Source: Stegostoma tigrinum
Lineage: Eukaryota
DNA length: 64,000 nt
NCBI RefSeq assembly: GCF_030684315.1
Contig: NC_081369.1
Location: 50,885,598 to 50,949,597, forward strand
Direction: 5' to 3'
The notes beneath the pieces were generated by a model. It was not told the DNA's origin and ran no database searches. It was given only the letters and a program-made list of their open reading frames with translations. Below, one piece after another: positions 5,382 through 60,150 of this stretch (position 1 is the stretch's first letter; every line of letters begins with the position of its first letter). The position numbers and the translations under genes are program-made.

Positions 5382-6830
5382 ACAATAAAATGTGAGGCTG
5401 GATGAACACAGCAGGCCCAGCAGCGTTTCAGAAGCACAAAAGCTGACGTTTCGGGCCTAGACCCTTCATCAGAGATGGGGATGGGGTGAGGGTTCTGGAA
5501 TAAATAGGGAGAGAGGGGGAGGCGGACCGAAGATGGAGAGAAAAGAAGATAGGTAGAGAGGAGAGTATAGGTGGGGAGGTGGGGAGGGGATAGGTCAGTC
5601 CATGGAAGATGGACAGGTCAAGGAGGTGGGATGAGGTTAGTAGGTAGGAGATGGAGGTGCGGCTTGGGGTGGGAGGAAGGGATGGGTGAGAGGAAGAACA
5701 GGTTAGGGAAGCAGAGACAGGTTGGACTGGTTTTGGGATGCAGTGGGTGGAGGGGAAGAGCTGGGCTGGTTGTATGGTGCAGTGGGGGGAGGGGACAAAC
5801 TGGGCTGGTTTTGGGATGCGGTGGGGGAAGGGGAGATTTTGAAGGTGGTGAAGTCCACATTGATACCATTGGGCTGCAGGGTTCCAGAGCGGAATATGAG
5901 TTGCTGTTCCTGCAACCTTCAGGTGGCATCATTGTGGCACTACAGCAGGCCCATGATGGACATGTAATCTAAACAATGGGAGCGGGAGTGGAAATGGTTT
6001 GCGACTGGGAGGTGCAGTTGTTTATTGCGAACTGAGCGGAGGTGTTCTGCAAAGCGGTCCCCAAGCCTCCGCTTGGTTTCCCCAATGTAGAGGAAGCCAC
6101 ACCGGGTACAATGGATGCAGTACACCACATTGGCAGATGTGCAGGTGAACCTCTGCTTAATAGGGAAAGTCATCTTGGGGCCTGGGACAGGGGTGAGGGA
6201 AGTGGTGTGGGGGCAAGTGAGCATTTCCTGCGGTTGCATGGGAAAGTGCCGGGTGTGGTGGATTTAGAGAGCAGTGTGGAGCGAACAAGGGAGTCACGGA
6301 GAGAGTGGTCTCTCCGGAAAGCAGACAAGGGTGGGGATGGAAAAATGTCTTGGGTGGTGGGGTCGGATTGTAGATGGCGGAAGTGTCGGAGGATGATGCG
6401 TTGTATCCGGAGGTTGGTGGGGTGGTGTGTGAGAACGAGGGTGATCCTCTTTGGGCGGTTGAGGCGGAGGCGGGGTGTGAGGGATGTGTTGCAGGAAATG
6501 CGGGAGACGTGGTCAAGGGCGTTCTCGACCACTGTGGGGGGAAAGTTGCGGTACTTGAAGTACGTGGACATCTGGGATGTGCGGGAGTGGAATGCCTCAT
6601 CGTGGGAGCAGATGCGGCGGAGGCGGAGGAATTGGGAATAGGGGATGGAATTTTTGCAGGAGGATGGGTGGGAGGAGGTGTATTCTAGGTAGCTGTGGGA
6701 GTCGGTGGGCTTGAAATGGACATCAGTTACAAGCTGGTTGCCTGAGATGGAGACTGAGAGGTCCAGGAAGGTGAGGGATGTGCTGGAGATGGCCCAGGTG
6801 AACTGAAGGTTGGGGTGGAAGGTGTTGGTG
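5382..6830 (-). mobile_element. Penelope-like element, 5'-truncated (left arm of palindrome)
   Basis: RT C-terminus (LTFLDLSV...HFKPTDSHSYLEYTSSHP) and GIY-YIG endonuclease (NVVYCIHCTRCGFLYIGETKRRLGDRFAEH), frameshifted. Confidence 0.93.
5445..5472 (-). ncRNA. Minimal hammerhead ribozyme motif (Penelope pLTR)
   Basis: The - strand reads CUGAUGA-AGGGUCUAGGCCC-GAAAC-GUC. Confidence 0.8.
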
Positions 6831-8308
6831 ACCTTCCACCCCAACCTTCAGTTCACCTGGGCCATCTCCAGCACATCCCTCACCTTCCTGGACCTCTCAG
6901 TCTCCATCTCAGGCAACCAGCATGTAACTGATGTCCATTTCAAGCCCACCGACTCCCACAACTACCTAGAATACACCTCCTCCCACCCATCCTCCTGCAA
7001 AAATTCCATTCCCTATTCCCAATTCCTCCGCCTCCGCCGCATCTGCTCCCACGGTGAGGCATTCCACTCCCGCACATCACAGATGTCCAAGTTCTTCAAG
7101 GACCGCAACTCTCCCCCCACAGTGGTCGAGAACACCCTTGACTGCGTCTCCCGCATTTCCCGCAACACATCCCTCACACCCCGCTCCTGCCTCAGCCGCC
7201 CAAAGAGGATCACCCTCGTTCTCACACACCACCCCACCAACCTCCGGATGATACAACGCATCATCCTCCGACACTTCTGCCATCTACAATCCGACCCCAA
7301 CACCCAAGACATTTTTCCATCCCCACCCTTGTCTGCCTTCCGGAGAGACCACTCTCTCCGTGACTCCCTTGTTCGCTCCACACTGCCCTCCAATCCCACC
7401 ACACCCGGCACCTTCCCCTGCAACCGCAGGAAATGCTACACTTGCCCCCACACCTCCTCCCTCACCCCCATCCCAGGCCCTAAGGTGACTTTCCATATTA
7501 AGCAGACGTTCACCTGCACATCTGCCAATGTGGTATACTGCATCCATTGTACCCGGTGTGGCTTCCTCTACATTGGGGAAACCAAGCGGAGGCTTGGGGA
7601 CCGCTTTGGAGAACACCTCCGCTCGGTTCGCAATAAACAACTGCACCTCCCAGTCGCAAACCATTTCCGCTCCCCCTCCCATTCTTTAGATGATATGTCC
7701 ATCATGGGCCTCCTGCAGTGCCACAATGATGCCACCTGAAGGTTGCAGGAACAGTAACTCATATTCCGCTTGGGAACCCTGCAGCCAATGGTATCAATGT
7801 GGACTTCACCAGCTTCAAAATCTCCCCTTCTCCCACCGCACCCCAAAACCAGCCCAGTTCATCCACTCCCCCCACTGCACCACACAACCAGCCCAGCTCT
7901 TCCCCTCCACCCACTGCATCCCAAAACCAGTCCAACCTGTCTCTGCTTCCCTAACCTGTTCTTCCTCTCACCCATCCCTTCCTCCCACCCCAAGCCGCAC
8001 CTCCATCTCCTACCTACTAACCTCATCCCACCTCCTTGACCTGTCCGTCTTCCCTGGACTGACCTATCCCCTCCCCACCTCCCCACCTATACTCTCCTCT
8101 CTACCTATCCTCTTTTCTCTCCATCTTCCGTCCGCCTCCCCCTCTCTCCCTATTTATTCCAGAACCCTCACCCCATCCCCCTCTCTGATGAAGGGTCTAG
8201 GCCCGAAACGTCAGCTTTTGTGCTCCTGAGATGCTGCTGGGCTGCTGTGTTCATCCAGCCTCACATTTTATTGTCTTGGATTCTCCAGCATCTGCAGTTC
8301 CCATTATC
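6831..8308 (+). mobile_element. Penelope-like element, 5'-truncated (right arm of palindrome)
   Basis: ~300 open codons of RT C-terminus plus GIY-YIG with Cys/His motif (ORF 6810..7739). Ends with the complete tail gcatctgcagttcccattatc. Confidence 0.93.
8185..8212 (+). ncRNA. Minimal hammerhead ribozyme motif (Penelope pLTR)
   Basis: CUGAUGA core, GGGUC/GGCCC stem II, GAAA, palindromic ACGU stem III; predicted cleavage after GUC at 8212. Confidence 0.82.
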
Positions 8309-9096
8309 AAGGCACAACAATACCTCTTTTTCCTCAGGTGGCTTGAGAAATTCAGTATGTCGATAAGAATCCTCACCAACTTTACAGATTCTCCATAGAA
8401 ACCATGTTATCTGGTTGAATAATGGCCTGGTATGGCAACTGCTATGCCCAGGAATGTAAGAAACTACAGAAGGAAGCCAAGGCCACCATGGAAGCCAACC
8501 TTCCATTCCTAGACTCCAATTCCACATCTCATTGCAGCAGAAAGGCTGCCAACATTGTCAAAGACCCCTCCCACCCTGTAATGCTCTCTGATGACCTTTT
8601 CCATCAGGTAGAAGATACAGGAGCTTGAACATCCATCAACAGGTTCTAGAACTGCCTCATCTCTGTCGTTATTAGACTGATGAATGGACTCTCTAACTTC
8701 AAATAATATTGATCTGTTAATGTTGATCTTGCTTTGTGCACCTCCTATGCAATGTAATCTGCATGCCTCACTCTGTCTAAGCTCCCTGTGTTCTGTATGT
8801 CCTTACCAACTATGATCTCTTTGCAAACAAAGCTTTTCGCTGTACTTAGGTACATGTGACTACATTTAATCAATCAAATCAAATAGTTTTGAACATTTCA
8901 TCACACTTTAGAATAAAACGTATAATTACACTATCTTAAATTCAGAAAACATACTGTGGTTGCAACCATCATCAGCCAGTTGAGTAATGTATAATCACTT
9001 AAATGGCTATAAATGTCAAGCATATTTCAAGTTCTTACTCGCATTTATGTTGTAACAATCTTTCTTTACCTGCATTGTTTTCTAAATGCCAATCTT

Positions 9097-9482
9097 GGGT
9101 TGGGGATAACAAAGTTTCATCTGAGTCAGGAAGAGCATTTTGAGTTCAAACCCTGCTCCAAAATGTGCAACACTGTTTGTTAGAGCTGTCAGCTTTCAGA
9201 AAAACTGTTCAACTGAAGCTCTGCGTTTCCTCAGGTGGATGTGGAAGACCCATGACTCTAGCCAAAGGAAACCATTCTCCTGGAGTTCTGACTAGTGTCT
9301 TTCCCTGGGCCAACATCACTTGAATACATTATCTAGACTTTATTATCTAATTGTCTTGTATACATTCGCTACTGCATTTTCCGATGTTGCAACAGAAACT
9401 ACATTTCAAAAGTGCTTAATTGGTTGAAGCAATTTGGAACAGTCTGGGAGAATGGAAGTATTGATATATAGACTTGCAAGTC
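9097..9482 (+). mobile_element. DeuSINE-like (SacSINE1/AmnSINE-type) SINE, decayed
   Basis: Head tctgagtcag...gttcaaacc, central ggtggatgtggaagacccatg, tail ttcaaaagtgcttaattggttgaagcaatttgg. Family matched from memory. Confidence 0.55.
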
Positions 9483-9559
9483 TAATTTTGGATTCTATAG
9501 TGAAGAACAGACATGATTGAGCACTTAGAGAAATTTGCACAGTGTAGAGGCAGCCAGTG

Positions 9560-10812
9560 TAAAATCCAATAAATAGGTTATGCTTATTATGTTTATGAGA
9601 AACCGTAGTATTATACAGAAGAATGTCTATGGATGCAGTGTGCATGGACTTCTGGAAGGCCCTCAAAAAGTTTCCACATAAGATATTGTCACGAAAAATG
9701 AAAACTCAAACGTTTGAAAGTTTATTATTGAAACAGTTAGAAGATTGGTTATGTAGAAGACAGAGTCTAGAGGTAATGAATAAGTACCAAATTGGAAAAA
9801 AATTGGGTGTCATTGTTGCACAAGTTTCTGTGCTCAGGCTGTAAATAATTCATTATTTTTATTGATGACTTAGATGGTAAAGAAGAATGATAAATACATG
9901 AGTTTGTTGTTAATATGAAGTTAGGTGACATAGTAAGTAGTGTAGATGGGACAAAATAATTGCAAAGGAACATTTGTTAATTTAATATGAGCACTTTCAA
10001 TGCACCTAAATGTGAGTACTTTGTGCTAAAACATAAAATCTGGGTTTTCTTAACACGATGAAAATCTAGAAACAGTGGCAGTTCAAGGGCTGCACATCAA
10101 TAAAATGTACAGATTTTTAAAAAATGACAGGGGCCATTAGATGGTAATGTTCCTAATTAGAAGGTAAGGATATAAAAGTACATATTAACATATACATAAA
10201 TTTTCAGAAGAAGGGTCCAGACCCGAAATATCAGCTTTCCTGCTCCTCCAATACTATTTGGCCTGCTGTGTTCATCCAGCCTTACACCGTGTTACCTCAA
10301 AATATAAAGGTGGATGCTTTGCTACACCTGGTCAAAGGTCTGGTTAGATCACATCTGAAGATCTGTCTTTAATTCTAGGAAAGGCAACTTAAAAATGATT
10401 TATTGGCCTTAGAAGTGCAGCACTGATTCACCAGAATGTTGCCAAGGCACCAAAGATTAAAATATGGGGAAAGATCACAAAAATAGAATTATATTTTTGT
10501 ATAAATATAATTATTGCAAGTAATTCAGAGATTTTGCATTTTGAAAGAATTGATTGGAAATCTTCTTGCTGATAAAGGACAAGGGACAATATCTTACAAA
10601 TCAGAGCCAGGCCATTCAGGAGATGAGGTAAAATAGTTGATCCAACTCAATCAGTAGTTTTAAATCACACATCAATTGGCTTTTCCGAGCAAAAGGTACC
10701 AAGGAAGATGGAACCAAAGTGATTGGGTGAAGTTGATATATAAAAATAAGCCACAATTCATTGAGCAGTAGGATATTGAGGAGCTGAAAGGCCAGTTCTT
10801 AATTTTATGTTC
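9560..10812 (+). mobile_element. CR1 LINE ORF2 relic with a small Penelope pLTR fragment at ~10202-10298
   Basis: MDAVCMDFWKALKKFPHKIL resembles the DVVYMDFQKAFDKVPH motif of CR1 RT; a CR1 3' end lies near 10740-10812. Confidence 0.7.
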
Positions 10813-13800: not shown

Positions 13801-14151
13801 TTCTGTGCGACAGTCGTACAAATTACCCGAGTGAACAGGATTACACTTGAGTCTGCACTTTTCCCCATTCTGTTACAAAACTATGGAAACCTCGGCAGCC
13901 GCTAATTCGCGCAGAAAGTGACGGCGCTTCCAAAAGTAAATGACATCATCGGGTTCGGCTCAAGCGGTTTCACCTGGTATGAACAAGGGCCAGGTGCTGT
14001 GTTCCCGTTCCCGTTATTCAATACGTTGTTGAAACATCTCGGTTTGATGGGGAGAGGGGTGAAAAACCAAACAAAGCGGCATAGATAACACAACTTGTCG
14101 AAATGAAATAACAAGTGATACGCTATTCAATCGAAATAGTTCAACAGATAT

Positions 14152-14157
14152 TTTATT
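14152..14157 (-). terminator. Candidate FOXL1 poly(A) signal AATAAA
   Basis: tttatt on the + strand, ~635 nt past the FOXL1 stop; usage not demonstrated. Confidence 0.4.
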
Positions 14158-14792: not shown

Positions 14793-16256
14793 CTATTTAA
14801 AATTGAAACATGTTTCTGAACAGGTTAAGGGAAGGTACGAGTAAAAAGGAAAACCGATTTGATAATATTTACCAGGTAAGTGATGTGAATCAAACGGCAA
14901 AGAAGTGTTTAAAGCGGCGTAGACTTTAGTCGAGGTATCTAAAAGCGAATTGCCGAAACATCTATTGGGTAGGTGTGTTAAATTCATTTTTGAAGTTGAA
15001 TTTTTACCAAGCTGGTCACTTTCACAACTGGTGTCGCTGTGATGGCTTTCTCTGGATAGGATACTTTCTATGCTAAAACTCTTGGACCGTGCACTGTGTG
15101 AGTTGGAGCTATTACCAGCTTTCTGTCCTCTGTTCTGATGGCTGCTGTTTCCAACCACTGAGGGGGAGCTCAGTGCTTGATTTCCGGGGGTTCTCACAAC
15201 CCGGGCTGAGTTGATACCCCGAGGTGATGGCTGAGAACTAGAAGATGGTTCGGCCGGCGTAGGCGAGTCTGCCTTCGTCGCTCTTCCTGGCATCTCCTCA
15301 CCTTGGTTCCCCTTCATGCAAGGGCCTGTGGATCCATCTTGCCCTGGCAAGGCCGTGAATCCAAATGCACCAGAGGCAGCGGTTGGAGGAGGGAAGGACA
15401 CGGCAGGCGGAAGAGCTGGTGAGGAAGAGTTGGTCCACACACGACGTTGGACTGGATGGGTCACCGCCTGGTCAATAGACTCCGCAGCAGGCGGATAAAG
15501 AAAAGTTACTTCGTCACACCTCAGTGCCTTGACATTTTTGCCCCCGATGCTTGACGGTGCCAACTCAGGATGGCAATCATTTTGTTTCTTTCCGCCGCTT
15601 TGAGTTCTCAAATTTCCTGAACGCGCTCTGTCTGACGAATCGCCGGCTTGTTTGAAGTTCTCCGGGTCAGATGAGTTGGGTCTTGGTTTGATGTCATGGT
15701 CAAATCCAGGCTTGGGAGACTCGTCAGCCTTCGTGCACTCTTCACCAGTTTCTGATTTGGCCCTCTTCCTCTCCATCTGCTCCTGAGCTCCTTGGGACTT
15801 GGCCTTTCTTTTTCTCCGTCTGTAGTTGCCATTTTCAAACATGTCCGTGCATCTCGGATCCAGGGTCCAGTAACTCCCCTTTCCAGGTTTGCCCTTCTCC
15901 CTGGGGACTTTGACAAAGCAGTCGTTCAGTGAGAGGTTGTGCCTGATGGAGTTTTGCCATCCTTGCTTGTTGTCATGGTAAAATGGGAAGCGCTCCATGA
16001 TGAATTGGTAGATGCCGTTCAAAGTCACTCTCTGTTCAGGGACACTTTTGATCGCCATGGCAATCAGGGCAATGTAACTGTATGGAGGCTTTTGAGGAGG
16101 CTCGTGCCTGGCCATCACGTTATTTCCACTGAATCCCAAGGAAGGGAACATCCTACTGTCCCCTCCATATAGGTACACTGAAGAACTACTGTTCAGGCCC
16201 ATTGTAGATCCTGACCCTCTGAGTTGCTGCAACTGATTGCTATAGATATGGTTCAT
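14793..16256 (-). CDS. FOXL1: Forkhead box protein L1, single coding exon, 487 aa
   Basis: [19 protein letters not shown]...[75 protein letters not shown] is diagnostic of FOXL1. Has an eh1 motif (FSIESIL) and lies in tandem downstream of FOXC2. Confidence 0.96.
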
Positions 16257-16439
16257 AGCTGTTCCCGGCGTCGCCTGAGCAAAACTATTCTTTTTTTTCT
16301 CTCTGCCTCTTCTTTTCTTTCAAACTTCCAAAAGAAATCACAGTTTACAACAAAAAAAATGTGGACTTGCAGGAGTCCACCACAGACCCTGTGTGCTACA
16401 GTTCAGCAAATGTGAGTACTGCCTCTCTTAAGATTGTTC

Positions 16440-24033: not shown

Positions 24034-25440
24034 TCAATACTTATTGCAGTCGTAGGCGTATGGCCCTGAATGCCGGTATACTGACGGTGTTGATCGGTAA
24101 GGGATTTGACAGCTTGTATTCCCGCTCACCTGATGGTCATTGAGTGCTGAGCTCTCAATGCCGAGTCGGTGGGAGTTAAACATCTCCCGTACATTGGGGA
24201 AAGTCTGCTGCTGGCTGGCGAACGTGTGGCCCGGGAGGTGGTTGAGATCTGCTCCGTGGTTGAGGTACCAGGAAGCGGCTTGTCCCGCCGGCGCCCCCGC
24301 CTGCTGAGGGTGACTCGGGCTGAGGACACCTTCCGGCGCTGTGCTCAGATTCATGGCGTTCAGGGAGGAGCTGCCGGAGTGGTCTGAGATAGCATCCTCC
24401 AGGCTGGTTGGTACCAGCATGTGGCTGCTCCTGTCCCCCGCGTACAGGCTCATGGTTCTCATACTGCAATGGTAACTTCCACTGGAGTCCATATTGTGGG
24501 TGCATCCTGGGCTGTACACGGCTTGCTGCGTTGGAGGGTAGTTCACCGGCAGTGAGGAGCCCATACCAGTCCTGCTGGAGCTCACAGCCACGGGGCTGAG
24601 GTCCCCTGGAGGAGATGTCCTCAATGTCATGATATTTTCCACGCTGAAGCCGGAGAGGTTGCTGTTGGTTGTGTTGTGATCCGGGATGGAGTTCTCTGTA
24701 GACACGGACGGCGTGGAGGCCACGCTCCTTGGGCTGTCCTGGATCAAGCTGCCATTGTCCGGGCTCTCCAAGCTCTCGACCTTGGTGATGACAGGCATAC
24801 AGGGCGAGCCCGCTTCGTTCTTGACCACCACCTTCTTCTCGGGGCAGGTGTCGGTCTGCGAGGCGACGTGCTGACCCCCTTTCGCCTCCTTCTGCTGCCG
24901 GTCGCGTTCCTCCTTGTCCCTGACCGCGTCTTTCTTCTTGAACCTCCGCCTCCTCCGCAAGAAGCTGCCGTTCTCGAACATGTTGTACGAGTCCGGGTCC
25001 AGCGTCCAGTAGCTGCCCTTACCCGGCTTTTTGTCGTCACGGGGCACCTTGACGAAGCACTCGTTCAGGGACAAGTTGTGGCGGATGCTGTTCTGCCAGC
25101 CCTGTTTATTCTCGCGGTAGAATGGAAAGCGGTCCATGATAAACTGATAGATCCCATTGAGAGTAATTTTCTTATCAGGCGCGTTTTGGATGGCCATGGT
25201 GATCAGGGCGATGTAGCTGTAAGGAGGCTTGACTAGGTCTTTAGGTACCGGCTGCTGGTGATGGTGATAGGGTCCATACGATCTCGCCATGCCTGTTGCG
25301 TACTGCTCGTGGCCCGGGTACATAGTCATCGGGGTGGGCATGCTGCCGTAAGTGCCGGCGGCTCGATAATAGTTTTGATCGCTGAGGTAAGGCACGACTC
25401 CCAGAGCATTGGGGTCTGACACTGGGTAACGCGCCTGCAT
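24034..25440 (-). CDS. FOXC2: Forkhead box protein C2, single coding exon, 468 aa
   Basis: N-terminus [29 protein letters not shown] is FOXC2-type rather than FOXC1-type. FoxC forkhead domain, eh1 motif (FSVENIM), C-terminus YAYDCNKY, adjacent to FOXL1. Confidence 0.97.
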
Positions 25441-25543
25441 CGCCGGGGAGTGAGACTGATTTTTGGTTTTACTTTTCGGCTCAGAATGCTGCTTGGACCG
25501 AGTATTTGAGAAATTATCTTTATTGGTTGAAGGGGTGGATCCG

Positions 25544-25565
25544 TTCTCTCTCTCTCTCTCTCTCT
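25544..25565. repeat. (CT)n microsatellite in the presumed FOXC2 5' UTR
   Basis: Read directly from the sequence. Confidence 0.9.
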
Positions 25566-34800: not shown

Positions 34801-34879
34801 TAGGGAGTCATTCTAAGCACATATACTGTTAGATCTCATTGGAACAATCTACCTGCTATCCACTTCTATAGGAGACATG

Positions 34880-36300
34880 AGATAATGGGAACTGCAGATG
34901 CTGGAGAATCCGAGATAACAAAGTGTGGAGCTGGATGAACACAGCAGGCCAAGCAGCACCTTAGGAGCTGGAAAGCTGACGTTTCGGGCCTAGACCCTTC
35001 ATCAGAAAAGGGGGATGGGGAGAAGATTCTGAAATAAATAGGGAGAGAGGGGGAGGTGGACCGAAGATGGATAGAGGAGAAGATATGTGGAGAGGAGAGT
35101 ATGGGGGTCGGGGGGGGGGGGGGGGGGTGGGGGAAGAAGGGAGGGGATAGGTCAGCCCAGGGAGGATGGACAAGTCAAGGGGGTGGGATGAGGTTAGTAG
35201 GTAGGAAATGGAGGTGCGGCTTAAGGTGGAAGGAGGGGATAGGTGAGAGGAAGAACAGGTTAGGCAGGTGGGGACGAGCTGGGCTGATTTTGGGATGCAG
35301 TGGGGGCAGGGAGATTTTGAAGCTGGTGAAATCCACATTGATACCATTGAGCTGCAGGGTTCCCAAGTGGAATATGAGTTGCTGTTCCTGGAACCTTCGG
35401 GTGGCATCATTGTGGCAGTGCAGGAGGCCCATGATGGACATGTCATCTAGAGAATGGGAGGGGGAATTGAAAATGGTTCGCGACTGGGAGATGCAGTTAT
35501 TTATTGCAAACCAAGCATAGGTGTTCTGTAAAACGGTCCCCAAGCCTCCGCTTAGTTTCCCCAATGTGGAGGAAGCCACACCAGGTACAGCGGATGCCGT
35601 ATACCACATTGGCGGATGTGCATGTGAACATCTGCTTGATGTGGAAAGTCATCTTGGGGCCTGGGATGGGGGTGAGGGAGGAGGTGTGGGGGCAGGTGTA
35701 GCACTTCCTACCGTTGCAGGGGAAGGTGCCGGGTGTGGTGGGGTTGAAGGGGAGTGTGGAGCAGACAAGGGAGTCGCGGAGAGAGTGGTCTCTCCGGAAG
35801 ACAAACAAGGGTGGGGCTGGAAAAATATCTTTAGTGGTGGGGTCGGATTAAGATGGCGGAAGTGTCGGAGGATGATGCGTTGTATTTGGAAGTTGGTGGG
35901 GTGGTATGTGAGGACTAGGGGGATTCTCTTTTGGCAGTTATTGCAGGGGCAGGGTGTGAGGGATAAGATGTGGGAAAAGCTGCAGACACGGTCGAGGGCA
36001 TTCTGGACCACTGCCGGGGGGACGTTTCCTACCTCCTAACTTCATCCTGCCCCCTCAACCTGTCCGTCCTCCCCGGACTGACCTATCGTCTCCCTACCTC
36101 CCCCCCCCACCATACTCTCCTCTCCACCTGTCTTCTCCTCTATCCATCTTCGGTCCACCTCCCCCTCTCTCTCTATTTATTTCAGAATCCTCTCCCCATC
36201 TCCCTTTCCTGATGAAGGGTCTTGGCCCGAAACGTTACCTTATGTGCTCCTGAGATGCTGCTTGGCCTGCTGTGTTCATCCAGCTCCACACTTTGTTATC
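34880..36300 (-). mobile_element. Penelope-like element: long - arm (34880-~36025) and short inverted + arm (~36027-36300)
   Basis: GIY-YIG relic (NVVYGIRCTWCGFLHIGETKRRLGDRFTEH). Hammerhead motifs at 34978-35005 (-) and 36209-36236 (+). Degenerate 15 bp TSD. Confidence 0.9.
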
Positions 36301-36459
36301 TATAGTGGACATGTTCATTTTCATTGGCACTTTATCTATAAGTGTTCTTTTACACAGCCATGTTATCGCAGCCTTTTGAAGCCTGTTCCTATTCCATCAA
36401 ATACAGAAACTTCTCTCTTCATAAAGCAATTGAGCACAATTCAGAACCAACATAAAAAG

Positions 36460-37469: not shown

Positions 37470-39182
37470 AGCAACACATAGTTAACAATAGCCTGTTAAT
37501 TGATGCTCAGTTCGTGTTCTGCCAGGCCCACTCAACCCTAATCTCACTGCAGCTTTGGTCCAAAAATGGACAGAAGAGCTGAACTCAAGAGGGAAGTGAG
37601 GGTATCAGAGATAATGGGAACTGCAGATGCTGGAGATTCCAAGATAATAAAATGTGAGGCTGGATGAACACAGCAGGCCAAGCAGCATCTCAGGAGCACA
37701 AAAGCTGACGTTTCGGGCCTGGACCCTTCATCATCTGATGAAGGGTCCAGGCCCGAAACGTCAGCTTTTGTGCTCCTGAGATGCTGCTTGGCCTGCTGTG
37801 TTCATCCAGCCTCACATTTTATTATCAGGGAAGTGAGGGTTACAGCTCTTGATATGAAGACAGCATTTAAGTGAGTGCAGTATCAAGGAGTCCTTGCAAG
37901 TGGAAATCAGGGAAAACACTCTCCATTAGTTGGGAATCATACCCAGAAGATGACTATGGTTCTTGGAAGTCAAAATTTTGGCGGAATAATATGATTGCAG
38001 ATTTTCCTTAGGGTATTGTCCTTTGACAATACTCAACTCAAAGACTCAACCACCTTTAACTGTTTTGTCAATGATTTTTTCTCTATCATAAGCTCAGAGG
38101 TGTGGATTTTAGCTGATGATTACACAATGTTCAACATCATTCTTGACTCTTCTAATATCGAACTCCTTGACATCCATGCTGTGCAAGTGCTGGATGATGA
38201 TTATTTCTGAAAAAACAGTATCCTACCAACATTCCTTGACTCAAAATGGCATTGTCTTCACTGAACCCCCCACTATCAACAACCTAGGGGTTATCATTGG
38301 ATGGACTGGACTAGCTATATAAATATTGTGGCTACAAGAGCTGAGAATGAGTAATGTATTTCCTGAATTCTCGAAGCCTGCAAAGTACAAATCAGGAATA
38401 TGATGTAATATCTTCCACTTTTGTGGATGAACGCAGTTCCAACATTACTTGGAAAGGTCAATAACGTACAAAACAAAGCAGCTAGTTTATTGGCATCCTG
38501 CATAGCACAGTCAGAGTAGTGTGCATTATCTGCAACATGCACTATAGTGACTCATCAAGGCTCATAGCACCACCCTCCAAACCCACAATCTCCACCACAT
38601 AGAAGTTGAAGCAGATATCTGGGAACACTACCACGAAAATGTTCACCTCAAAGCCATAAACTATCTGATTCAGAGCTCTTTTGCTGTTCCTTCACTTGAA
38701 TGTTAATTCCTGGAATAACCTTCCCAACTGCCATGTGGATAGAACATAGAACGTAAAACACAGAATAGGGCAACACAGTACAGGTCCTTTGGCCTAATCC
38801 TAAGGTCTATCTAACTTCCAGCCCTACCTTTTACTATCATCCATATTACTATCTAATTGCCGCTTAAATGTCCCTAATGAGGCCAACTCCACTATCATCT
38901 CTGGCAATGCATTCCACGCCCCTACTACTCTCTGAGTAAAGAACCTACCTCTGATGTCTCCCCTATATCTATCTCCACTCACTTTAAAACTCTGCCCCCT
39001 CGTAATAGCTACCTGCACTCTCAGCAAAAGTCTCTGGCTGTCCACTCTGATCATTTGATGTACTGACACCACATAGAATGCAAAAGTTGAAGAATGCAGC
39101 CCACCACCAACTGCTCAAAGAGAACTAGAGATGGGAAAGAAATGCTGTCTTAGAGATCAATGCTCACCATGAATGAATAGAA
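37470..39182 (+). mobile_element. RTE-X-like LINE RT relic with nested Penelope mini-palindrome and CR1 (38742-39055, -)
   Basis: VRVTALDMKTAF resembles ALDIKAAFDRVWH; catalytic ADD (ttagctgatgat) at ~38110; same tail as the copy ending at 4706. The nested CR1 reads GDRYRGDIRGRFFTQRVVGAWNALP. Confidence 0.65.
37604..37826. mobile_element. Penelope pLTR mini-palindrome with 14 bp TSD
   Basis: Arms ~37646-37733 and ~37736-37826 are reverse complements. TSD agggaagtgagggt at 37590-37603 and 37827-37840. Intact hammerhead at 37735-37762 (+). Confidence 0.92.
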
Positions 39183-44675: not shown

Positions 44676-44689
44676 GTCAGTTTTGACCC

Positions 44690-49730: not shown

Positions 49731-50224
49731 AGTGAAGCCGACTTCCCAGGTTTATTCTATTAAGGAGACATGCATTTTGCAAAGCTTTGTTATTATTTGC
49801 ATGCTGAAATGATCAGAATAGTGCAAGCTTTTTATTCTTTATATGTTTGTTTTATGTTTAGGCATGTTATGGACTATGATTAGTTATTTATCCACATTGT
49901 CATCATAAGTTAACATCTGCCACAATAATGATTTTTTCAATAAATCAATCATCTATCTTATTCATAATTATAGAACATGAGGCACAGTCTTAAGAAAAAG
50001 GAATGTATCATTTGAGATTGAGATAAGGAAAAGCAGCTTCATTTGAATGCTTGTGAATGTTTTGATTTCTCTACCCCAGGGCTTATAAATGCTCCATCTT
50101 TGATTAAATTCAATGGTGAGATAAATAGAATCATGACCTCTCAAGCCAAAAGCACATATGGGAAGCAGGTGCAAAACTGGAGTTGAAACAGAAGCTCAGC
50201 TATTATCATACTGAATGGCATACC

Positions 50225-51330
50225 AAAAGATGTTGCAGTATAAATAGGCCATTTACCTTACACATTTGCACTGCTATTCAATGCAGTCATGGCTGATCTA
50301 ATAATCTTGAACTCCACCTTCCTGCCTTAACTCCATATTACTTGATTCCCTTTAAAACTCTGCCTGTTCCAGCCTGGAAAACACTTAACAATCCAGCCTT
50401 ACAACTCTCTGAAAGAAATCAATTGATTTACTACCATTTGAGAGAAGAAAAACCTACTCAGCTCTATCTTAATTGGTGCCTTTACTCTGAGATTATGCCC
50501 TTTGGTCTTAGGCTCTCTCACAAAGGGAAACAACCACTCCGAACCCACTTTGTCAAGCCTGAAAGAATTTTATATGTTTCAATAAGGTATTTTTTCCTTC
50601 TTCTAAACTCCAATGGGTACAAGCCCAACCGCTGAACTTCACTTCATATGAACATCTTCCCATACACGGGATTAATCAAACAAAACTTCTCTAGACTGCC
50701 TCTAGTGCCAGTATATCTTTCCTTAGATAATGGGGCCAAAGGCGTTCAGAGATGATGGGAACTGCAGATGCTGGAGAATCCAAGATAACAAAGGGTGAAG
50801 CTGGATGAACACAGCAGGCCAAGCAGCATCTCAGGAGCACAAAAGCTGATGTTTCGGGCCTAGTATTCCAGGTGAGACCTGACTAGTTCTGAACATGGGT
50901 CTCGGGACTCGAAATGCTAACTCTGCTTTCTCTGTCAGACCTGCTGAGTTTCTTTGGCAATTTCTGTGTTTCTGATCTGGCTAGTGTCTTGTATGGTTTC
51001 AACAAGGCTTCTTTAATTTAAACTCCATTGCCTTTGAAATAAAGGCAAACAGTACATTTACCTTCCCTATTATCTGCTGGATTTTTACATGCCAGCTTCT
51101 TTCATGCATGTGGACACCCCAAAACCCTCTTTGCTACAGTCTTCTACAGTATTTTCCAATTTAAATAATATTTAGCTCCTCTATTCTTCCTTCCACAGTG
51201 CGCAGTATCATATTTTCCTGCCAAAAATTGTAACTGACAATTTTTTGCCCTCTCACTCAATCTGTCTGGATCCCTCTGCAGACACTTTGTTTCACCCATA
51301 CTACCTGCTTCCACATCAGCTTTTGTGTCT
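50225..51330 (-). mobile_element. CR1 3' region with nested Penelope pLTR fragments (50748-50863 -, ~50886-50975 +)
   Basis: Reversed CR1 3' UTR (atggctgatct). The insert starts gagatgatgggaactgcagatgctgg, like 34880 and 37607. Confidence 0.7.
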
Positions 51331-51599
51331 TGGTGACAGCATATTGTTGAAAAGATAGATTCAGGCCTGAGGGGCTGAATAGTCTTTACCTGTTCCTGTT
51401 TCTTATGCTCTCAAACTACTGTGTAAAGATGTAAGAGTTCTTAATCAAAAATATGTGATAACTTTTCATTGCAAAACATGTTCTTTCACACACAAAATTG
51501 ATGTAAGTACGATACACTGTTCAAAACAGCATTGGGAAGCATTACCATGAATGTCAGACCAATTTAAGAAATAAACAATATCTTCACAAACGATCACAT

Positions 51600-51840
51600 T
51601 TGTTTCTTCATTTTAGAAATCAGATAATCTTTACTAAATCTCATCATTATAAACAACTTGACATTGACTTTTATCAACGTTCTTTGTGTGTCATTTGAAA
51701 GTCTGCCATAGATAAATGCTGAATGTTCAACATCAATTATGGTGACTAGCAGCCAAATATAACACACAGCTAGTTGAAACAATTTAGATACCTCTGGACT
51801 CATTAGTACTCTTGCTTCCAAATTTAGTTTTGACACGGAA
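51600..51840 (-). mobile_element. hAT transposase C-terminal dimerisation domain relic
   Basis: LAVCYIWLLVTIIDVEHSAFIYGRLSNDTQRTL...NVK resembles the PVSS.DVERSFS.Y..LL.DRR.SL..EN pattern. Confidence 0.5.
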
Positions 51841-52689
51841 CAGAAGTTTTCCCTTTATAACTGAAACATATTGGAACCAAAAAAGGTTTATACCCATTAC
51901 TTTCTGTGCTACATAACACTTTTTGAAGACCGGTTTTTAGGTTCATCATTAAATTATATAGTAATCCAACTTGGAGAGGCAGAAATTGGATGATTACTAT
52001 GAAAATAAAAGTGAAGATCTTGTGACACAGTCAGCAGCATCCCCAACTCTGAATCAGAAACTCAGGTGACTCCCATTCGTGATGTGATAACCAACAACAT
52101 TAATGATGCAACCTAACAGACTAAATATTGACTTGACAATCCTTCCACTGTATAGCAACAGCAGGTAATATGAATGGGAGAGGTTCCTGGTCAATGATGA
52201 AATGGCATCATCACTATTCATAGATGCAGACTATAACTTGTATGTTGAAATTGCAACTCAGTCTCCCTGAATGGATTGTAGCACATTATCTCCCCATGAG
52301 ATAAATATGGATTGGAACGGCTGCCATGTCACACTGTGGAATATTTCAGCAGATTAATTTACTAGAACGTACAAGACTAAACCATATCTCATTGTCTGTA
52401 GTTTTGCTGAAGACCTCTGTATTTTGATGGCTGCCAATTTAGCATTATGGATGTATCTGCTCTCTCACGGGTTTTTGCTGAAGCTAATTGGTTTCAGTAG
52501 GGTGTCTCACAAATCAATTCGACAAAGAAAACTGAAGCTGAACCTTTTCAACATTTCTGGCACATTAATTGTGCCTGAACAGAAGAATGTATGTTTTTAA
52601 TGAGATCATTCTATCGAAAGTCAATGCCATTGTCTGTGCACCTTTGTAATCCTCCCCAGAATTTCTTCATTCTTTTTAAGCCATTCAAA

Positions 52690-54538
52690 ATCAGAAATGA
52701 CATGACACCGGGTGATAATCCAACAGATTTAGTTGAAAGCATAAGCTTTCGGCGTCTTAGTCCTTCTTCAGGTTTTAGTGAGAGAGGTAATATCAGACGT
52801 ACAATTTATAAGATCAAAAGGACACATCGCAGATGAGGATATACTAAACAAATAGAAGATGCTGTTAAATGTTTAATCAGTTTTTAAGAAGGTTTTAATT
52901 GATTAATATGTATATGTAAATCCCCAAATTCCTTTGAAGTCACTGTCCTGAGAAAACTAAAGGTTCTATCAATGCAAAAAAGAGGTGACATTTTAGGCCA
53001 GACAATGTATGTTAGGTGTGAGGCCTTGTTTAGAATCTGTTTGTGTTTTGGTTTGGAGTCAGACTGGTTTTATTTCTAAAGTAGGAATTTATAAAATGTC
53101 ACATTGTCTATAAATTGTGTGCTTTTTGAACAAAATAGAATGTATCTGCAAAACAAATTCACCCAATAGCGTCACATGTGTGTGCGTGAGTGTGTGTATG
53201 TGTGGGAGAGAGAGTGTGAGTGTGTGTGTGAGGCACTGTATATTTATGAGAGAGGATCTATGTGAGTATGTATGTGTCACGCATGTGACTTGTCTATCTC
53301 ATACCCTGCAGGCAAGGCTGCCCCAAGGCACGGTATATTGGCAAAACTATGCAGATGCTGCAACAACAGATGAATCGACACCATGCTACAATCATCAGAC
53401 AGGGATGTTCCCTCCCAGTGGGGAAGCACGCACGCGCGCATACACACACACACACATAGACTGTAGGCCTCTGAGGTGGAATATGAGGTGCTGCTCCTCC
53501 AGTTTGTAGTTGGTGTCATTGTGACACTGGAGGACGCCCAGGATAAATGTGTCACCCAGGGAGTGGGAGAGGGAGTTTAAATGGTTCGCGGCCAGAAGGT
53601 GTTGTCGTTTGTGGTGAACAGAACACAGATGTTCTCCAAAACACTCTCTGAGTCTCCGCTTGGTCTCAACAATGTAGAGGAGGCCACATTGGGAGCAGCA
53701 GATACAGTGGGCCAAGTTGATGGATGTGCAGGTGAACCCTTGTCCAATACAGAAAGTTTGTTTAATGCCTTGAATGGAGGTGAGGGGAGAGGTATAGGGC
53801 AGGTATTGCACTTCATGCAGTTGCAGGGAAAGGTACCGATGGCTGGTGGGGTTAGTGGGGAGTATGGAGCAGACGAGGGAGTCGCAAAGAGCGTGTCCCT
53901 ATGAAAGGCAGATAGGAGTGGAGAGGGAAATATCTCTTTGGTCATGGGGTCGGATCATAGGGGGCGGAAGTGGCAGGGAATGACACTTGAATGCAGAGGT
54001 TGAGATTGGTGGGGGAATATGTGAGGACAAGGGGGGGGGGTTCTATCTTTATTTTTGTTGGGGGGAGCGGATGTAAGGACAGAGGTGTGGGAAATGTAAG
54101 AGATGCAGTTGAGGCATTTTCAATCACCGGCGAGGGGAAGTTACAGTCCTTGGAATAGGAGGACATCTGGGATGTTTGGGAGTGGAATGCCCCATCTTGG
54201 GAGCAGACGTGATGGAGGTGGAGGAAACGAGAGTAGGGGATCGCATCCTTGCAGGAGGGTGGGTGGGAGGAGGTGTAGTCTCAGTAGCTGTTGGAGTTGG
54301 TGGGCTTGAAATTGATAGAGGTTTCGAGGCGGTCACCAGAGATGGAGACAGAGAGGGCCAGGAAGGGGGGGGGGGTATTGGAAATGATCCAGGTGAATTT
54401 GAGGTTGGGGTGTAAGTTGTTAGTAAAATTGATGAACTGTTCAAGCTTGTGATTTCAAATAAACCTCTTGGACTATAATCTGGTGTCATGTGATTTCTGA
54501 CCTAGTCCACCCCAGTCCAACACCGCACCTCCACATCC
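52690..54538 (-). mobile_element. Composite Penelope structure: third-family termini (52690-~53280 -, 54443-54538 +) around a GIY-YIG/RT relic (53460-54440 -)
   Basis: CICCSQCGLLYIVETKRRLRECFGEH. Inverted termini: gacaccgggtgataatccaacagattt vs aaacctcttggactataatctggtgtc. Hammerhead-like motif at 52743-52771 (-). Confidence 0.75.
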
Positions 54539-54899
54539 AGCCATTGAGGCTGCTGATATCAATTGGAAAAGCCTGTGTGCCAGCTAATGGCATTTTATAT
54601 TTCAGTTTTCTTTTACACAACTAGAACTTTTAAGGTTATGAAGTAGTTGCCTGCATCACTTTATTAAAGTGGAAGTGAATAGTTTGTTCGCATTGAAACA
54701 TCTGTAAAGTTTGGTTAATGTCTTAAGACATTTGAAAGCAGTATCTGTGCATGTGTTCTTTTAACATTTGTTGCTCAGGGTCCACTGAGACAGCCTCAGG
54801 AAAGCTGTGTAACACAAGTCAATGTTGGGTCACCATTGTCTTTTACATCATTGCAGCCCATTCCTTTGCCTCACAATGATGCTTTGACATATCAGTAAT

Positions 54900-56180
54900 G
54901 CGGCAGAGAGAATGGGTCAAACAGTTCAATTGCTGATTTCCCTGAGGTCCAGGGTCTCCTCAAACACCCACATCACCATGAAGTCATTCAAAGTGCATCC
55001 CTCTCACTGGTGGATTTAGTAAGAAAAGTGTCAGCAGTTTGAGACACCACAATGAGTATGCCACATGTTAATTCCCCACATGTAGGATGCATTGATCCTC
55101 CTCTAATTTGTTCCTCCCACACTGCTTCAAGGAAGAAACCACAGCCAAGAGCTACAATTGGATGTATTTTACCTGCTATCCAAAATGGAAGTAGAATTGT
55201 GGTACAGTGGGGAATTTTCTGGTGTCAGCGTGACCATCAGGGTACTGAAAGTGTTCTTTCAAAGTCCAGACTGGTCCTGTTCGAATTTACCGAAGATATT
55301 TTCTAATCAAAATCAGAAATTGTTGGAAAATTCAGCAGGTCTGGCAATATCTTTGGAAAGAGGCAGAGTTAACATTTCAGATAATGCTTGAGCCATTTTG
55401 CAGAACGCCTAGGTTCTATCCACAAAAATGGCCTGTTGCCTGCCATTTTAATACACCACCGTGTTCCCTGGCCAATGTCTCTGTCTTCAGCATGGTATAG
55501 TGCTCCAGTGAAGCTCAGAGCAAGCTGAAAAAAGAGCACTTCATTTTCCACCTGAAATCTTCTGGATTCAATATCGAGTTTGACAATTTTAGGGTCTGAG
55601 CACCTTCTATATCCTTACCCCAATCTCCATGCATCAGGCCTTGACATCAATGGGCTGCTGCCACAAACCCATTGTCAACAACTAATGGTGCCCATTAGCA
55701 GCTATTCATTCTCCCAAACTGACCTTTACCCATTCCTTTGTCTGCTTAACTTTTTTTCTTTCTCTCTCTGGACTCCATCTCCAGCTATTGTTTACTATTT
55801 TTCCCCCGCCCCACACCCCATCTCTCACATATACATCAACCAATTCCTTGCTACAATCAGTTCTCAAGAAGGGTCACTGGGTATCACCGCGTTCTTTCCA
55901 CAGATGCTGCCAGACCTGCTGAGTTTTTCTAGCAATTTCTGATTTCCAGCTTCCGCAGTTCTTTGGTTTTAGAAAATATTTTCTCATCAACTTGTGCAGA
56001 GATATTATCTCTACAGCAGGTAGGTCTTGAATCCAGTCCTCCCTGCTCAGTGTAGGGACATTAACCTGGCAGTACAAGGTCCTTAGGGCTTTGCCAGATA
56101 GGATTTCCAGAATTGCCAAACCTGCTGTGCCCCTCATAAATACGCCATCGAGGAAGAGCTGCCAGTCTGATATGGTCAAA
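54900..56180 (+). mobile_element. Harbinger (HARBI1-like) DDE transposase relic, interrupted by a Penelope inverted repeat at ~55307-55970
   Basis: IADFPEVQG (~54930) resembles IAGFP.VQG.ID; CCAPHKYAI (~56123) resembles CCALHN.AI. Heavily decayed. Confidence 0.45.
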
Positions 56181-57219
56181 AAGGAGGTACTAGTTAACAA
56201 TAAACTTGAACATCATTGAGCAAAGCAGCAGCATAGCATACACTTGCTGCAAGTTGCAAAGGATACTAAAGGTCAGAAACTTGCAGAGGTCTTCTCTTTT
56301 GTACCTCAGCTTAACCTTTCCAATTTTATCCTGTGTCTCTCAACTTGGCTTTGCCACATGGGTAGTAACAAGTATTCAGCTTTTAAAAACATCTGCACCA
56401 CATACGAGGGGCACAGAGAAAGCTGCAATATGTGGGATGCATGGACCTTTACCAAGTATTCAGTGCATGAATAACTTTAGGTTGACATTTTTAAACATGT
56501 ACAAAAAAAAAATCCTCTAAGAGCACATCATGCTTTTTATCAGTGTGAGAACTTGGTCCTTGGCTTTGCCCACATTGTGCAAATTGCAGCGGGTAGCAAT
56601 TAAACTTTGCATGTAAATAATACCATATTCAATTGCTTTGGTTAATTGTTTCCATCTTTCCCTCAATCTTTAAATATGTTTCCAACTATTATCTTTGCAA
56701 GAATTAACTTCATTAGACATGGTATGAGTAGGTAAGTAAAATCACCCTTTAATGTTTCCTTTCATATTATTGTGTCATTGTTTTTCTCATTTAGCAATCT
56801 CACTCAATGCTGAACATTTGCAATATGGGCACCCCAGGATCAACCAGTTTAATCATTCCTCCATTCATACTGATCAACAACAGCTTGAAGTAAGGCTCTG
56901 AAATCATCTATCTTACTTCTGTGGTACAAATTAATTACATTCTTTGGTTTTGGAATGCTATTCTTGCGTGACTCATCAGCTATATCCACACAAACAAGAG
57001 AATGGGTCTGCTTTTCAGATGTTTAAAAAGTGGGTTCTGCTGTTCACTGTCTGGTGACATTTACTCTACGTTCAAACTATTTGCCTCTACATGCATAACA
57101 GCTTCAATCAGAAATTCTGATTAAAACACTTGTAAGGGTAGATATTCAGCAAGGTGGAAATTCCACCTGCCAATGTCTGTTAATATTATTGTAACTGGAA
57201 TGAGTACCCTACTTACATA

Positions 57220-57465
57220 AAAGCAAAGTGGTGCGGATGCTGGAGATCTGAAATAAAAACAGAAAGTGCAGGGAAAACTCAATAGGTCTGGGAGTGTCAG
57301 GAGAGAGAGAGAGGCAAAGAGTTAACAGTTTTAGTCCAGTATGCTTCTTCTTAATATAACTCTTCTTTGGAAGAAGATTCTGGATTTGAAACATTTACTT
57401 TTTTCTCTCTCTCTCTCTCCACAGATGCTGCCAGACCTGCTGAACTTCTCCAGCTCTCTGTTTTA
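57220..57465. mobile_element. Old Penelope pLTR mini inverted repeat
   Basis: gatgctggagatctgaaataaaaacagaaa... faces ...cacagatgctgccagacctgctgaacttctccagc; decayed hammerhead at ~57368-57395. Confidence 0.7.
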
Positions 57466-58154
57466 AGTACCCTATTTATACTGGGCTGGATTTTTACCAG
57501 TCCTGAAGTAACAGGTTGTGAGAGAGGGGGAGCAGAAGGACACAGGGCGCCCATCATCCTCCTGTTGACATTCTGCCCATGAAGGGAAAGGTGGAGGACA
57601 GCTGTCCCATGAGAAAGACATCTGAGCCACTTAACTGGCCAAACACAGGCTTCTTCCCATAGCCTATAGTATTTTACCAATGGCAGGTGGACGCTCTACT
57701 TTGTGGGAAAACTATCTGGTGTACCTGATGACATTTCTGCCCACTTGAGTGGGAGGACATCTCTGTGAACCTAGTGGGATCGCAGCTGCAATGCCAATCC
57801 CCGTGCCAAACCCTTCCCTGTCCTGAAACTGGTGGTGCATTGACATTATGATTAAACATGATTATTTTTCATGAGATGCCAATCCTCAGCAACAAGTTGC
57901 CATGTTTAAGTATAACCAGAGATATTTTTTACAAGTGAACATTTTAAACTGTCAATTCCACTCTTTGATAATAGAATTTGCATTTTGCAATTTTCAAATA
58001 CTGCTTGAGAAGAAACCTGAGAACAATGCAAACTTTTCTGGAAACTGCCACAATTTTAGGTGGATTTGGAATCTGGTTCACTTATTGCACCCAAACTGGA
58101 AAATCTGATGTGGATTTTAAGGCCTTTAGTTGCAGAGGCATTGGAAGGCCAAGA

Positions 58155-59200
58155 GACCTTGCAAAATGAAACAAAGAGGTCATCTTTCTGTTGAACTTCA
58201 GGAGATGGGAGAAATAGTTAATGAATATTTAGTGTCAGTTTTTATCACGGAGAAAGAAATGGAGGCTCGAGAACTCAGTGAAATAAATATTGATGTTTTG
58301 AAAACAGTTCACATTACAGAAGAGAAGGTGCTGGAGGTCTTAGAAAATATAAAGATGGTTAAAGGTGGGTAAAAGTGTGTCCCAGAACTTTGTGGGAAGT
58401 TAGGGAGAAAATACCTGGGCCCTTTGCAGAAATATTTGTATCAGCCAAAATTACATGTGAGGTCCTGGATGACTGGAGAGAGGCTAATGTTGTGCTTTTG
58501 TTTAAAAAGGGATGTGAGGAGAAGCCAGGGAATCTATGTCCAATAGTTGGAATGGTGAACTGGTGAGGTGAATTGTCAGTTGTGAAATGTCACAAGCAAA
58601 GGATGGCTGAAAATAAGGGGGTCAGCGTCATACAGCACGGAAACAGACCCTTTGGTCTAAGCAGTCCATGCTGACCATGTTTTCAAGCTAAACTAGTCCC
58701 ACCTGCCCGCATTTGACTCATTCCCTCCAAACCTTTCTTATTCATGTACTTATCCAAATATCTTTTAAACAATGTAACTGCACGCGTATCCATCGTTTCC
58801 TCTGGAAGTTCATTCCACACAAAAACCACGTTCTATGTAAAAAAAGTTGCACTTCATGTCCTTTTAAAATCTTTCTCTTCTCACCTGAAAAATATGTCGC
58901 CCAGTCTTGAAATCACCAACCACCGCGAAGGCACACCTGCCATTCACTTTACCTGCACCCCTGCTTTTAAAAAACCCCTATAAGGTCACTCCTCAACCTC
59001 CTAAGCTTCAGGAACAAAAGTCTCAGTCTATCCAGCCTCTCCCAATAGCTCATACCGTCTGTTCTCAGCAACATCCTGGTAAATCCTTTCTGAATCTTTC
59101 CAGCATGATAAAATCCTTCCTACGGAAGGGCAACCTGAAATGGACACAGTATTCCAGAAGTAACCTCACAAATGTCCTACACAGCCTTAACATGACTTGC
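58155..59200. mobile_element. CR1 fragments (+ 58155-58565; - 58625-59200)
   Basis: EMGEIVNEYLVSVF...PRTLWEVREKI...DDWREANVVLLFKKG; reversed 3' end from 58625. Confidence 0.8.
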
Positions 59201-59969
59201 CAAGATTCCGCTGGCGAAGTTGAGTCAGACAGTCAGGGAGTAGTCAAAGGGTATGAGCCGAGGAAGCAGTGATGTCAGCATGTTCAATTGCATAGTTACC
59301 TTAGTGTTAGAGCAAGATTGGGAATGGCAATGAACGCTGGCCTAGCCAGAGAGGCTCGCATCCTGTCAATGAGTACAAGAAAATCTGGCCAGCTGCTACT
59401 TAGTGCATTGACTGAAGTGCAGCAATGAAGTGTGACACCCCATGATATGTATTCGTATTGCAATTAGTTCCTAGCTCTTTAAGAATAATATAACAAAATA
59501 AGTCTCACTTCAAAAAACCTGGAATCATTACATCTTGTTAAATGTGGTGTAACTGAGATTTTATATAGTGCACTAACTTCACCATTACTAATGAAAACTC
59601 TCACCGGACAGGAGAAAGGAATGTAAAATTCCTCTACAATGATAAAATAATTGACACATTTAAAATGAAGTATACTTAAAGACAAGTTTCTTTGCTTTTA
59701 CTTTAGCTTCAATATTACTCCGAATGTTATCAAGTCTTCCACCATCGGAAAATTTAAAAGGATATTTAGGCTCAGATATTACAAGAAATACAATCAGTAC
59801 TTGTCACTTCATTCCTATTTTCTTCTATCAGTACTGAACTGTTTTCTCTACCTTAGAATTTCAATCGTGACACCTTCGTAGATGTGAAGCACGTCCAAAA
59901 TCCAGCAGATCCCTCGTACCGCAGGACAGTGGGAGAAGTCAACCTATCCTCTCAAACTGTGCAGCAATG

Positions 59970-60150
59970 TAACAAAACAGAACTGTGGATATTAGAGATC
60001 TAAAACAAACTAAAACAGAAATTCCTGGAGAAATTCAGCAAGTCTGGCAGATATTGCCAGAAATGCTGCCAGTTCAGATGAAAGAACACTGGACTTGAAA
60101 CATGAACTTTGTTTTCTCTCCACAGATGTTGCCAGATGCTGAACAATTAT
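59970..60150. mobile_element. Old Penelope pLTR mini inverted repeat
   Basis: aaacagaaattcctggagaaattcagcaagtctggcag faces ctctccacagatgttgccag; decayed core cagatgaa...gaaacatg. Confidence 0.6.

Follow-up and report, generated by a model that had tools for sequence, protein, structure and literature searches.

Penelope-like insertions of Stegostoma tigrinum pair one tailed with one tail-less arm, consistent with priming at two fixed internal RNA sites

The inverted Penelope insertions found in a 64,000-nucleotide stretch of the Stegostoma tigrinum genome (NCBI RefSeq assembly GCF_030684315.1, contig NC_081369.1, positions 50,885,598 to 50,949,597 of the forward strand; this whole stretch is hereafter the window, and its first letter is position 1) follow a simple architectural rule, in which one arm carries a short tail and the other stops at an earlier, nearly fixed point. 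The insertions are copies of endonuclease-bearing (EN+) Penelope-like elements (PLEs), constituting new families of an already known kind. In the element numbering used here, 0 is the final base of the tail motif; the tailed arm end (T) lies at about 0 to +8 and the tail-less arm end (S) at about -33. The combination of one T and one S arm (T+S) is nearly without exception among abutting pairs, and it is probable that both 3' ends of a single staggered cut prime reverse transcription, each at its own fixed internal RNA site, the two sites lying some 35-40 nt apart.

Results

Pairing of tailed and tail-less arms

The rule was quantified for the main family in about 1.28 Mb of the 3.2-Gb genome, comprising random blocks, selected stretches (50 chosen by core match in contig C1 and 10 by tailed match) and the window. 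The random blocks total 750 kb: four randomly placed 200-kb blocks, less 50 kb of the C14 block in which a segmentally triplicated unit recurs two further times. Across this sample, 164 of 290 terminal arms make up 82 abutting head-to-head pairs, 80 of them T+S, one S+S and one T+T. As unpaired arms are about equally tailed and tail-less (64 T, 62 S), independence would give mixed pairs half of the time, and the binomial probability of 80 in 82 is 7e-22. The random blocks alone yield 32 pairs, every one T+S, beside 49 unpaired arms, where simple arithmetic from arm density predicts about 0.5 abutting head-to-head pairs by chance. About 40% of insertions are two-armed, and the tail is found on either genomic side. 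The sole S+S pair (L121) is old and reached -7 against another reference; the sole T+T pair (L140) is interrupted by a gap of 52 nt, and a target-site duplication (TSD) was not seen there.

Exact patterns searched genome-wide give 18,382 short palindromes of tail plus core and 589 of tail plus tail, a tail-tail share of 3% against 25% if arms were independent; this 3% is an upper bound, because the tail motif is common to more subfamilies than is the core motif. The first 40 tail-tail loci divide into 16 internal pseudo-long terminal repeats (pLTRs) that continue into the open reading frame (ORF), 7 with mirrored flanks and 17 others. Six of the 40 pass the TSD score, three of them through element-derived palindromic matches and three with real TSDs; one of the latter (L165) ends in an S end and has another copy nested within it. 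Most of the inspected tail-tail exceptions are not single insertions. The seven loci with mirrored unique flanks (L143, L146, L147, L156, L167, L169 and L179) may be assembly artefacts, or else inverted duplications of greater extent with a Penelope stump at the centre.

The same two end classes recur in families B and C, whose pLTR sequences differ from that of family A: 7 of 10 short family-B pairs are T+S (two are unclear and one is S+S), as are 3 of 3 in family C. These short pairs serve for end class only; the intervals searched for their TSDs were ill-placed and gave a clear duplication in few of them. Palindromes are a normal outcome for these elements, as a preliminary description of the window had proposed, since 64 of the 113 terminal arms in the random blocks are paired and the genome holds 18,235 short palindromes with exact cores on both sides. 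Neither rarity of inverted pairs nor randomness of arm ends relative to the tail, the two outcomes which that description had named as telling against its view, was found. The shape belongs to EN+ PLEs in general and is no peculiarity of these families.

Target sites and priming ends

Young pairs and arms were selected at an identity of 85% for counts of TSDs, microhomology and flanks, and at 88% for the comparison of paired with solo TSDs and for the work on solo copies, centre joints and the subfamilies of young pairs; seven of the 80 T+S pairs were left out of the TSD, microhomology and flank work. A TSD accompanies 45 of the 54 young pairs analysed and measures 13-17 bp in 42 of these. Judged by a single rule, 44 of 51 pairs have a TSD, with a mean length of 14.7 bp, against 26 of 68 unpaired arms, for which the mean is 11.4 bp (p 2e-9); some of the "unpaired" arms in this comparison are pairs with wide gaps. 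Longer TSDs around pairs are as expected if extension protects both overhang ends only where a pair is made. The target flanks are two-fold symmetric over 45 sites, with A in 67% three bases to the left of the TSD and T in 58% three bases to its right, a purine in 82% immediately to the left and A in only 7% immediately to the right. This symmetry would be compatible with one enzyme specificity that nicks the two strands at points about 15 nt from each other and leaves 3' overhangs.

Microhomology between target and element averages 2.0 nt at S (38 junctions; null 0.80) and likewise 2.0 nt at T (40 junctions; null 0.89), and in 2000 target swaps the observed value was never attained at either end. 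The preliminary description had treated microhomology as special to the tail-less end, whereas it is equally strong at T and does not, therefore, single out the internal site. Microhomology as the selector of the S site was accordingly rejected, as it amounts to just 1-5 nt and is no weaker at T.

In 37 of 45 pairs the S end keeps to positions -30 to -35, and solo S copies have TSDs of their own, which identifies S as a true priming site. Tailed ends are spread over 0 to +11 nt into the ORF-ward continuation, and in the 5' pLTR of a full-length copy (L115) the tail sequence continues straight into the ORF, so that the tailed end is an internal RNA position. Of the two priming events proposed earlier, one at the RNA 3' end and one internal, the duality thus stands and the placement at the 3' end does not; PMC11167929 shows initiation in vitro to be internal at both sites. 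The spacing from S to T is 31-46 nt, mostly 35-40, in 35 clean pairs. A tail of fixed length, as if a ruler were laid between S and T, was considered and rejected, as the offsets of the two ends are uncorrelated in 35 pairs (Spearman 0.00).

Arm lengths, centre joints and subfamilies

Arm lengths, counted in 78 of the 80 T+S pairs (L082 and L115 left out), vary independently of each other: in the 26 long pairs, defined by one arm of more than 200 nt, the S arm exceeds the T arm in 14, falls short of it in 10 and equals it in 2. Most short arms begin at -130 to -111, at or slightly upstream of the hammerhead core; the many arms of about 130 nt probably arose by run-off at the transcript's 5'-most pLTR. 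Four young arms begin exactly at the predicted hammerhead cut, at -96; hammerhead-cut RNA is not claimed as a template, because the cut site is also a 4-nt palindrome.

At 51 centre joints the arms overlap by 1-12 nt in 24, meet flush in 5 and are separated by inserts of 1-19 nt in 22. One such joint, in the T+S pair L096 (about 1813-1831; G000:C1 near 521990), holds a 19-nt insert of telomere-like CCCTAA repeats, which suggests that telomeric sequence was added while the arms were being joined. The two arms of a pair match at 0.88 of diagnostic sites, compared with 0.63 in shuffled pairs, and belong to the same subfamily in 15 of 16 long pairs (by eye) and in 44 of 46 informative young pairs.

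Identity of the element

A copy related to those of the window (L012) has an open frame of 736 amino acids with an RVT_1 match at residues 244-364 (E 0.00028), and the window copy of the C-terminal part of this frame, 88% identical, matches GIY-YIG (E 0.00066); both matches lie below the Pfam cut-off. Searches of PDB sequences gave no match, and NCBIfam only a weak one to a group I intron endonuclease (E 0.066). The full-length copy L115 runs pLTR, ORF, pLTR, tail, with a unit of 3528 nt, and bears in addition an inverted truncated arm; a 14-bp TSD encloses the whole, which follows the T+S rule. It thereby has the partial-tandem pLTR arrangement with an inverted arm seen in EN+ PLEs, and the T-S spacing together with the continuation in L115 corresponds to the optional 30-40 bp tail that in EN+ PLEs extends ORF-ward. 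Genome-wide, one 28-mer from the pLTR is found 111,430 times.

By eye, the pLTRs of families A, B and C all contain a core of the form CUGA(U/A)GA...GAAA, and in family A the stem folds. In the window this putative minimal hammerhead-like motif reads CUGAUGA ... GAAAC GUC at 8185-8212 (+), with a predicted cut after 8212; an Rfam scan of the window gave no hammerhead match at the gathering score and no other match. Within L115 the 8-mer TCTCTGAT occurs both at -127 to -120, where short arms usually have their 5' end, and at about -1 to +6, the T site, and ATTATCT is present at both the S and T sites. Both motifs are possible protein-binding or template-jump signals.

Insertions in the window

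Self-BLAST and direct reading resolve seven insertions in the window as head-to-head Penelope-like arms of three families, in agreement with the earlier count of about six or seven from at least two or three families. The pairing of a tailed with a tail-less arm that had been described there is clear in six of the seven, and TSDs of 14-15 bp flank five.

The largest, insertion A of family A (5382-8308), is a 95% palindrome. Its S arm of about 1.45 kb (5382-6829, -) has its 3' end at element position about -34, and its T arm (6829-8308, +) retains the 3' part of the reverse transcriptase (RT)/thumb region, GIY-YIG, pLTR and tail, the tail of about 34 nt (8275-8308, +) being on this arm only. 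The 14-bp TSD AAGGCACAACAATA lies at 5374-5387, where its last 6 nt are shared with the tail-less arm, and at 8309-8322. An older family-A pair (34865-36313 with TSDs, body 34880-36300) has a tailed arm of about 1.14 kb (34880-36020, -), a tail-less arm of about 275 nt (36027-36301, +) and a 15-bp TSD, 13 of 15 positions identical (34865-34879 and 36299-36313), which, as judged by eye, shares 2-3 nt with the tail-less end. In the short family-A pair (37590-37840 with TSDs, body 37604-37826), a tailed arm (about 37602-37733, -) meets a tail-less arm (37734-37826, +), both arms starting at the hammerhead-like CUGAUGA; the 14-bp TSD (37590-37603 and 37827-37840) overlaps the tailed end by 2 nt and the tail-less end by none. 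The TSDs of 14, 15 and 14 bp noted previously, two of them overlapping the tail-less end, were thus correct for the family-A insertions (6 nt, 2-3 nt and none).

The family-C pair (52691-54538) consists of a long tail-less arm (-) with remnants of RT and endonuclease, about 50% identical to family A at the amino-acid level, and a tailed arm (+) at 54443-54538; its TSD candidate is only 7 bp (52679-52685 and 54539-54545). Two family-B pairs have TSDs that had gone unmentioned before; the family-B and family-C insertions of the window were likewise judged by eye. The one at 55296-55990 with TSDs (body 55307-55970) has a short tail-less arm (-), a tailed arm (+) that includes a piece homologous to the end of the ORF, and a 15-bp TSD (14 of 15 identical); the short pair at 57203-57480 with TSDs (body 57220-57465) has a tailed (-) and a tail-less (+) arm and a 15-bp TSD (13 of 15). 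In a decayed family-B pair (59970-60150) the tailed arm is on the minus strand and its plus-strand partner fades before the tail; a TSD was sought for this pair and none was found. Additions to the earlier list are an unpaired tailed family-A arm (50746-50863, -) and two older unpaired family-A pLTR stumps of about 80% identity (10204-10286, +; 63143-63252, +).

Other features

Two forkhead-domain ORFs of about 508 amino acids (14793-16319, -; 24034-25563, -; Pfam Forkhead E 1e-40) have the appearance of FOXL1 and FOXC2, members of the FOX cluster of vertebrates. Interleaved inverted repeats of 98-100% identity, unlike the Penelope families, lie at 339-444/1366-1471 and 1081-1236/1659-1814 and may be a recent local rearrangement or an assembly feature; a 212-bp direct repeat of 98.6% identity lies at 39749-39960/41079-41290. 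Elsewhere in the genome, a unit of about 24-25 kb stands in three tandem copies with the same Penelope insertions in each (G000:C14:30,033,000-30,090,000, L064-L069), and no family-A match occurs across 185 kb of a block of 50% GC (G000:C5:60,000,001-60,185,000, L021-L039), which is probably a different repeat or satellite region.

Discussion

A model of integration and its rivals

The T+S rule, the TSD lengths, the 2-nt microhomology at both ends, the symmetric target motif and the repair-like centre joints are all read directly from the sequence, and they allow the construction of a model for the integration of these elements. This model proposes that the GIY-YIG endonuclease, probably as a dimer, would nick both strands about 14-16 nt apart to leave 3' overhangs, whose ends may then anneal to the RNA over 1-5 nt, at the upstream S site (about -33) in the one case and at the downstream T site (0 to +8) in the other. 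The same RNA would probably be used by both ends, which would exclude the use of one site twice: once S is covered by hybrid, only T would be free, and it is by this means that a single RNA would explain the exclusivity. The second enzyme would displace the first cDNA, both cDNAs would extend independently of each other, and their free 3' ends may be joined through microhomology or short templated patches. Priming from a single end would give a solo S or T copy, the unused overhang being trimmed. A broader reading, to which we would give even chances, is that PLEs integrate routinely by such a two-primer reaction, in which an RT-endonuclease dimer would cut symmetrically, leaving about 15 nt of 3' overhang, and would copy one RNA twice simultaneously from two fixed internal sites; a single mechanism, distinct from the target-primed reverse transcription of long interspersed nuclear elements, would then account for the 130-nt stumps as well as for the inverted pLTR, the tail on one side and the length of the TSD.

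Several considerations weigh against the proposed model. Copying the same stretch twice would need strand displacement or RNase H, and an S enzyme that always led would give longer S arms, which 14 against 10 does not show. No TSD of score at least 10 was recovered in 9 of the 54 young pairs. The inner starts of the two arms lie at most 20 nt apart in 44 of 78 pairs, and some centre inserts are local snap-back copies, both of which are also predicted if the first cDNA folds back. The match of subfamily between arms loses force as proof of a single RNA template, since the two long-arm subfamilies differ in age (within-group divergence 2.2% and 3.9%) and a match would be expected anyway. One subfamily-discordant pair (C9 block 76917) has a clean 14-bp TSD.

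The main rival has both ends primed as well, from two RNAs held by an asymmetric protein dimer with one subunit on S and the other on T. It accounts no less well for the T+S exclusivity, the full length of the TSDs, the symmetry of the nicks and the independence of arm lengths, and two of the 46 informative young T+S pairs do mix subfamilies, one of them with a clean TSD. However, it requires an asymmetry built into a homodimer, and in several pairs (p3, p14 and p74) the arms share rare variants and have no closer copy than each other; moreover, the arms of two long pairs start at most 11 nt apart, at about -1470 and -1610, as if both enzymes had run off one broken RNA. We consider two RNAs unlikely. 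A different possibility, close to the self-priming and EN-resolution ideas put forward in PMC3846280 and PMC8557442, is that the cDNA primed at T folds back to serve as its own template, and that the AT-rich site at -33 is where it is then joined or where the endonuclease cuts it. The near-equal inner ends would follow from this, as would the perfect palindromes and snap-back inserts among centre joints, and the S site has the ATT motif preferred by the anole enzyme (PMC11167929). Yet a copy of the T cDNA cannot exceed it, barring later deletion, and the S arm is the longer in 14 of 26 long pairs; the TSDs of pairs are untrimmed and those of solo copies shorter; and solo copies flanked by TSDs of their own end at S, a position that corresponds to an in-vitro RT start site. 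Fold-back may thus suit the short symmetric cases, and would not suit the longer S arms, the untrimmed TSDs or the solo S copies; as a general account it seems distinctly improbable. Least credible of all is a secondary origin, whether by two adjacent independent insertions, a later inverted duplication or an assembly artefact, for which we see hardly any room. Mirrored flanks at 7 of 40 tail-tail loci speak for it there, and mixed subfamilies are commoner at tail-tail loci than in T+S pairs (7 of 31 against 2 of 46, p 0.026). For T+S pairs it is largely refuted by the finding that in 44 of 51 young pairs one TSD surrounds the two arms together; random adjacency, moreover, cannot yield 80 of 82, and arms that differ by about 1-6% are not assembly mirrors.

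Comparison with known systems

In L1 twin priming, as Ostertag and Kazazian reportedly set out in 2001, both target nicks prime cDNA, giving an inversion within one TSD with microhomology at the centre; the first strand is said to be primed at poly(A) and the second at a variable upstream site, so that the arms are mostly of different RNA parts, and the event is said to be a minority one. The insertions described here likewise have one TSD around the inversion and microhomology at the second priming site and the centre. They differ in that neither end has poly(A), the S end is fixed and not variable, both sites being fixed at 35-40 nt from each other, the same sequence is copied twice, and two-armed insertions make up about 40% of the total. 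Integration may be said to resemble twin priming, but it is no L1 event.

With canonical EN+ PLE insertions the present insertions share head-to-head arms, a tail at one end, a single enclosing TSD and RT followed by GIY-YIG, and their pLTR has a candidate for the hammerhead motif. For Pen2a_Av, PMC3846280 reports that a pLTR is inverted, that one pLTR may carry a tail of 31 bp and that TSDs measure 8-10 bp, and it favours self-priming; the Fig. 2 legend of PMC8557442 gives the same layout, that source ascribing the tail to EN-mediated resolution and calling the origin of PLE inverted repeats and the one-sided tail undefined. The layout of L115 is exactly the "typical" one of these two accounts, and minimal hammerheads are reported in PLEs by PMC6155905. 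In those published descriptions the tail is optional or "often at one end" and TSDs are 8-10 bp, whereas here T+S is nearly obligate and quantified, TSDs are 13-17 bp, and paired and solo TSDs are unequal.

The closest experimental parallel is PAc, the Poseidon element of Anolis carolinensis (PMC11167929, in the sections drawn upon), in which two internal RT start sites bracket the tail in vitro; both strands are cut and extended by the enzyme, which is predicted to dimerise, and later integration steps are left unvalidated. As in the shark elements, the two tail-bracketing sites lie roughly 100 nt downstream of the hammerhead. In those sections the two sites are not linked to the two strands, inverted arms and TSD length go unexplained, and no homology at priming is reported, whereas a microhomology of about 2 nt is enriched here. 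The genomic rule makes the open question of PLE integration directly testable in the anole assay: it predicts that nicks come in pairs about 15 nt apart, that each strand uses a single start site and that exclusivity holds molecule by molecule. For repeat annotation the rule matters as well, in that at least 18,000 short palindromes in the genome are fresh retrotransposition products and neither miniature inverted-repeat transposable elements nor assembly errors. A coupling of one site to each strand in PLEs was not found stated in the literature searched, subscription papers lying outside that search. The architecture (PMC3846280; PMC8557442) and the two in-vitro start sites (PMC11167929) are already published; what is added here is the quantified T+S coupling rule and the difference between paired and solo TSDs.

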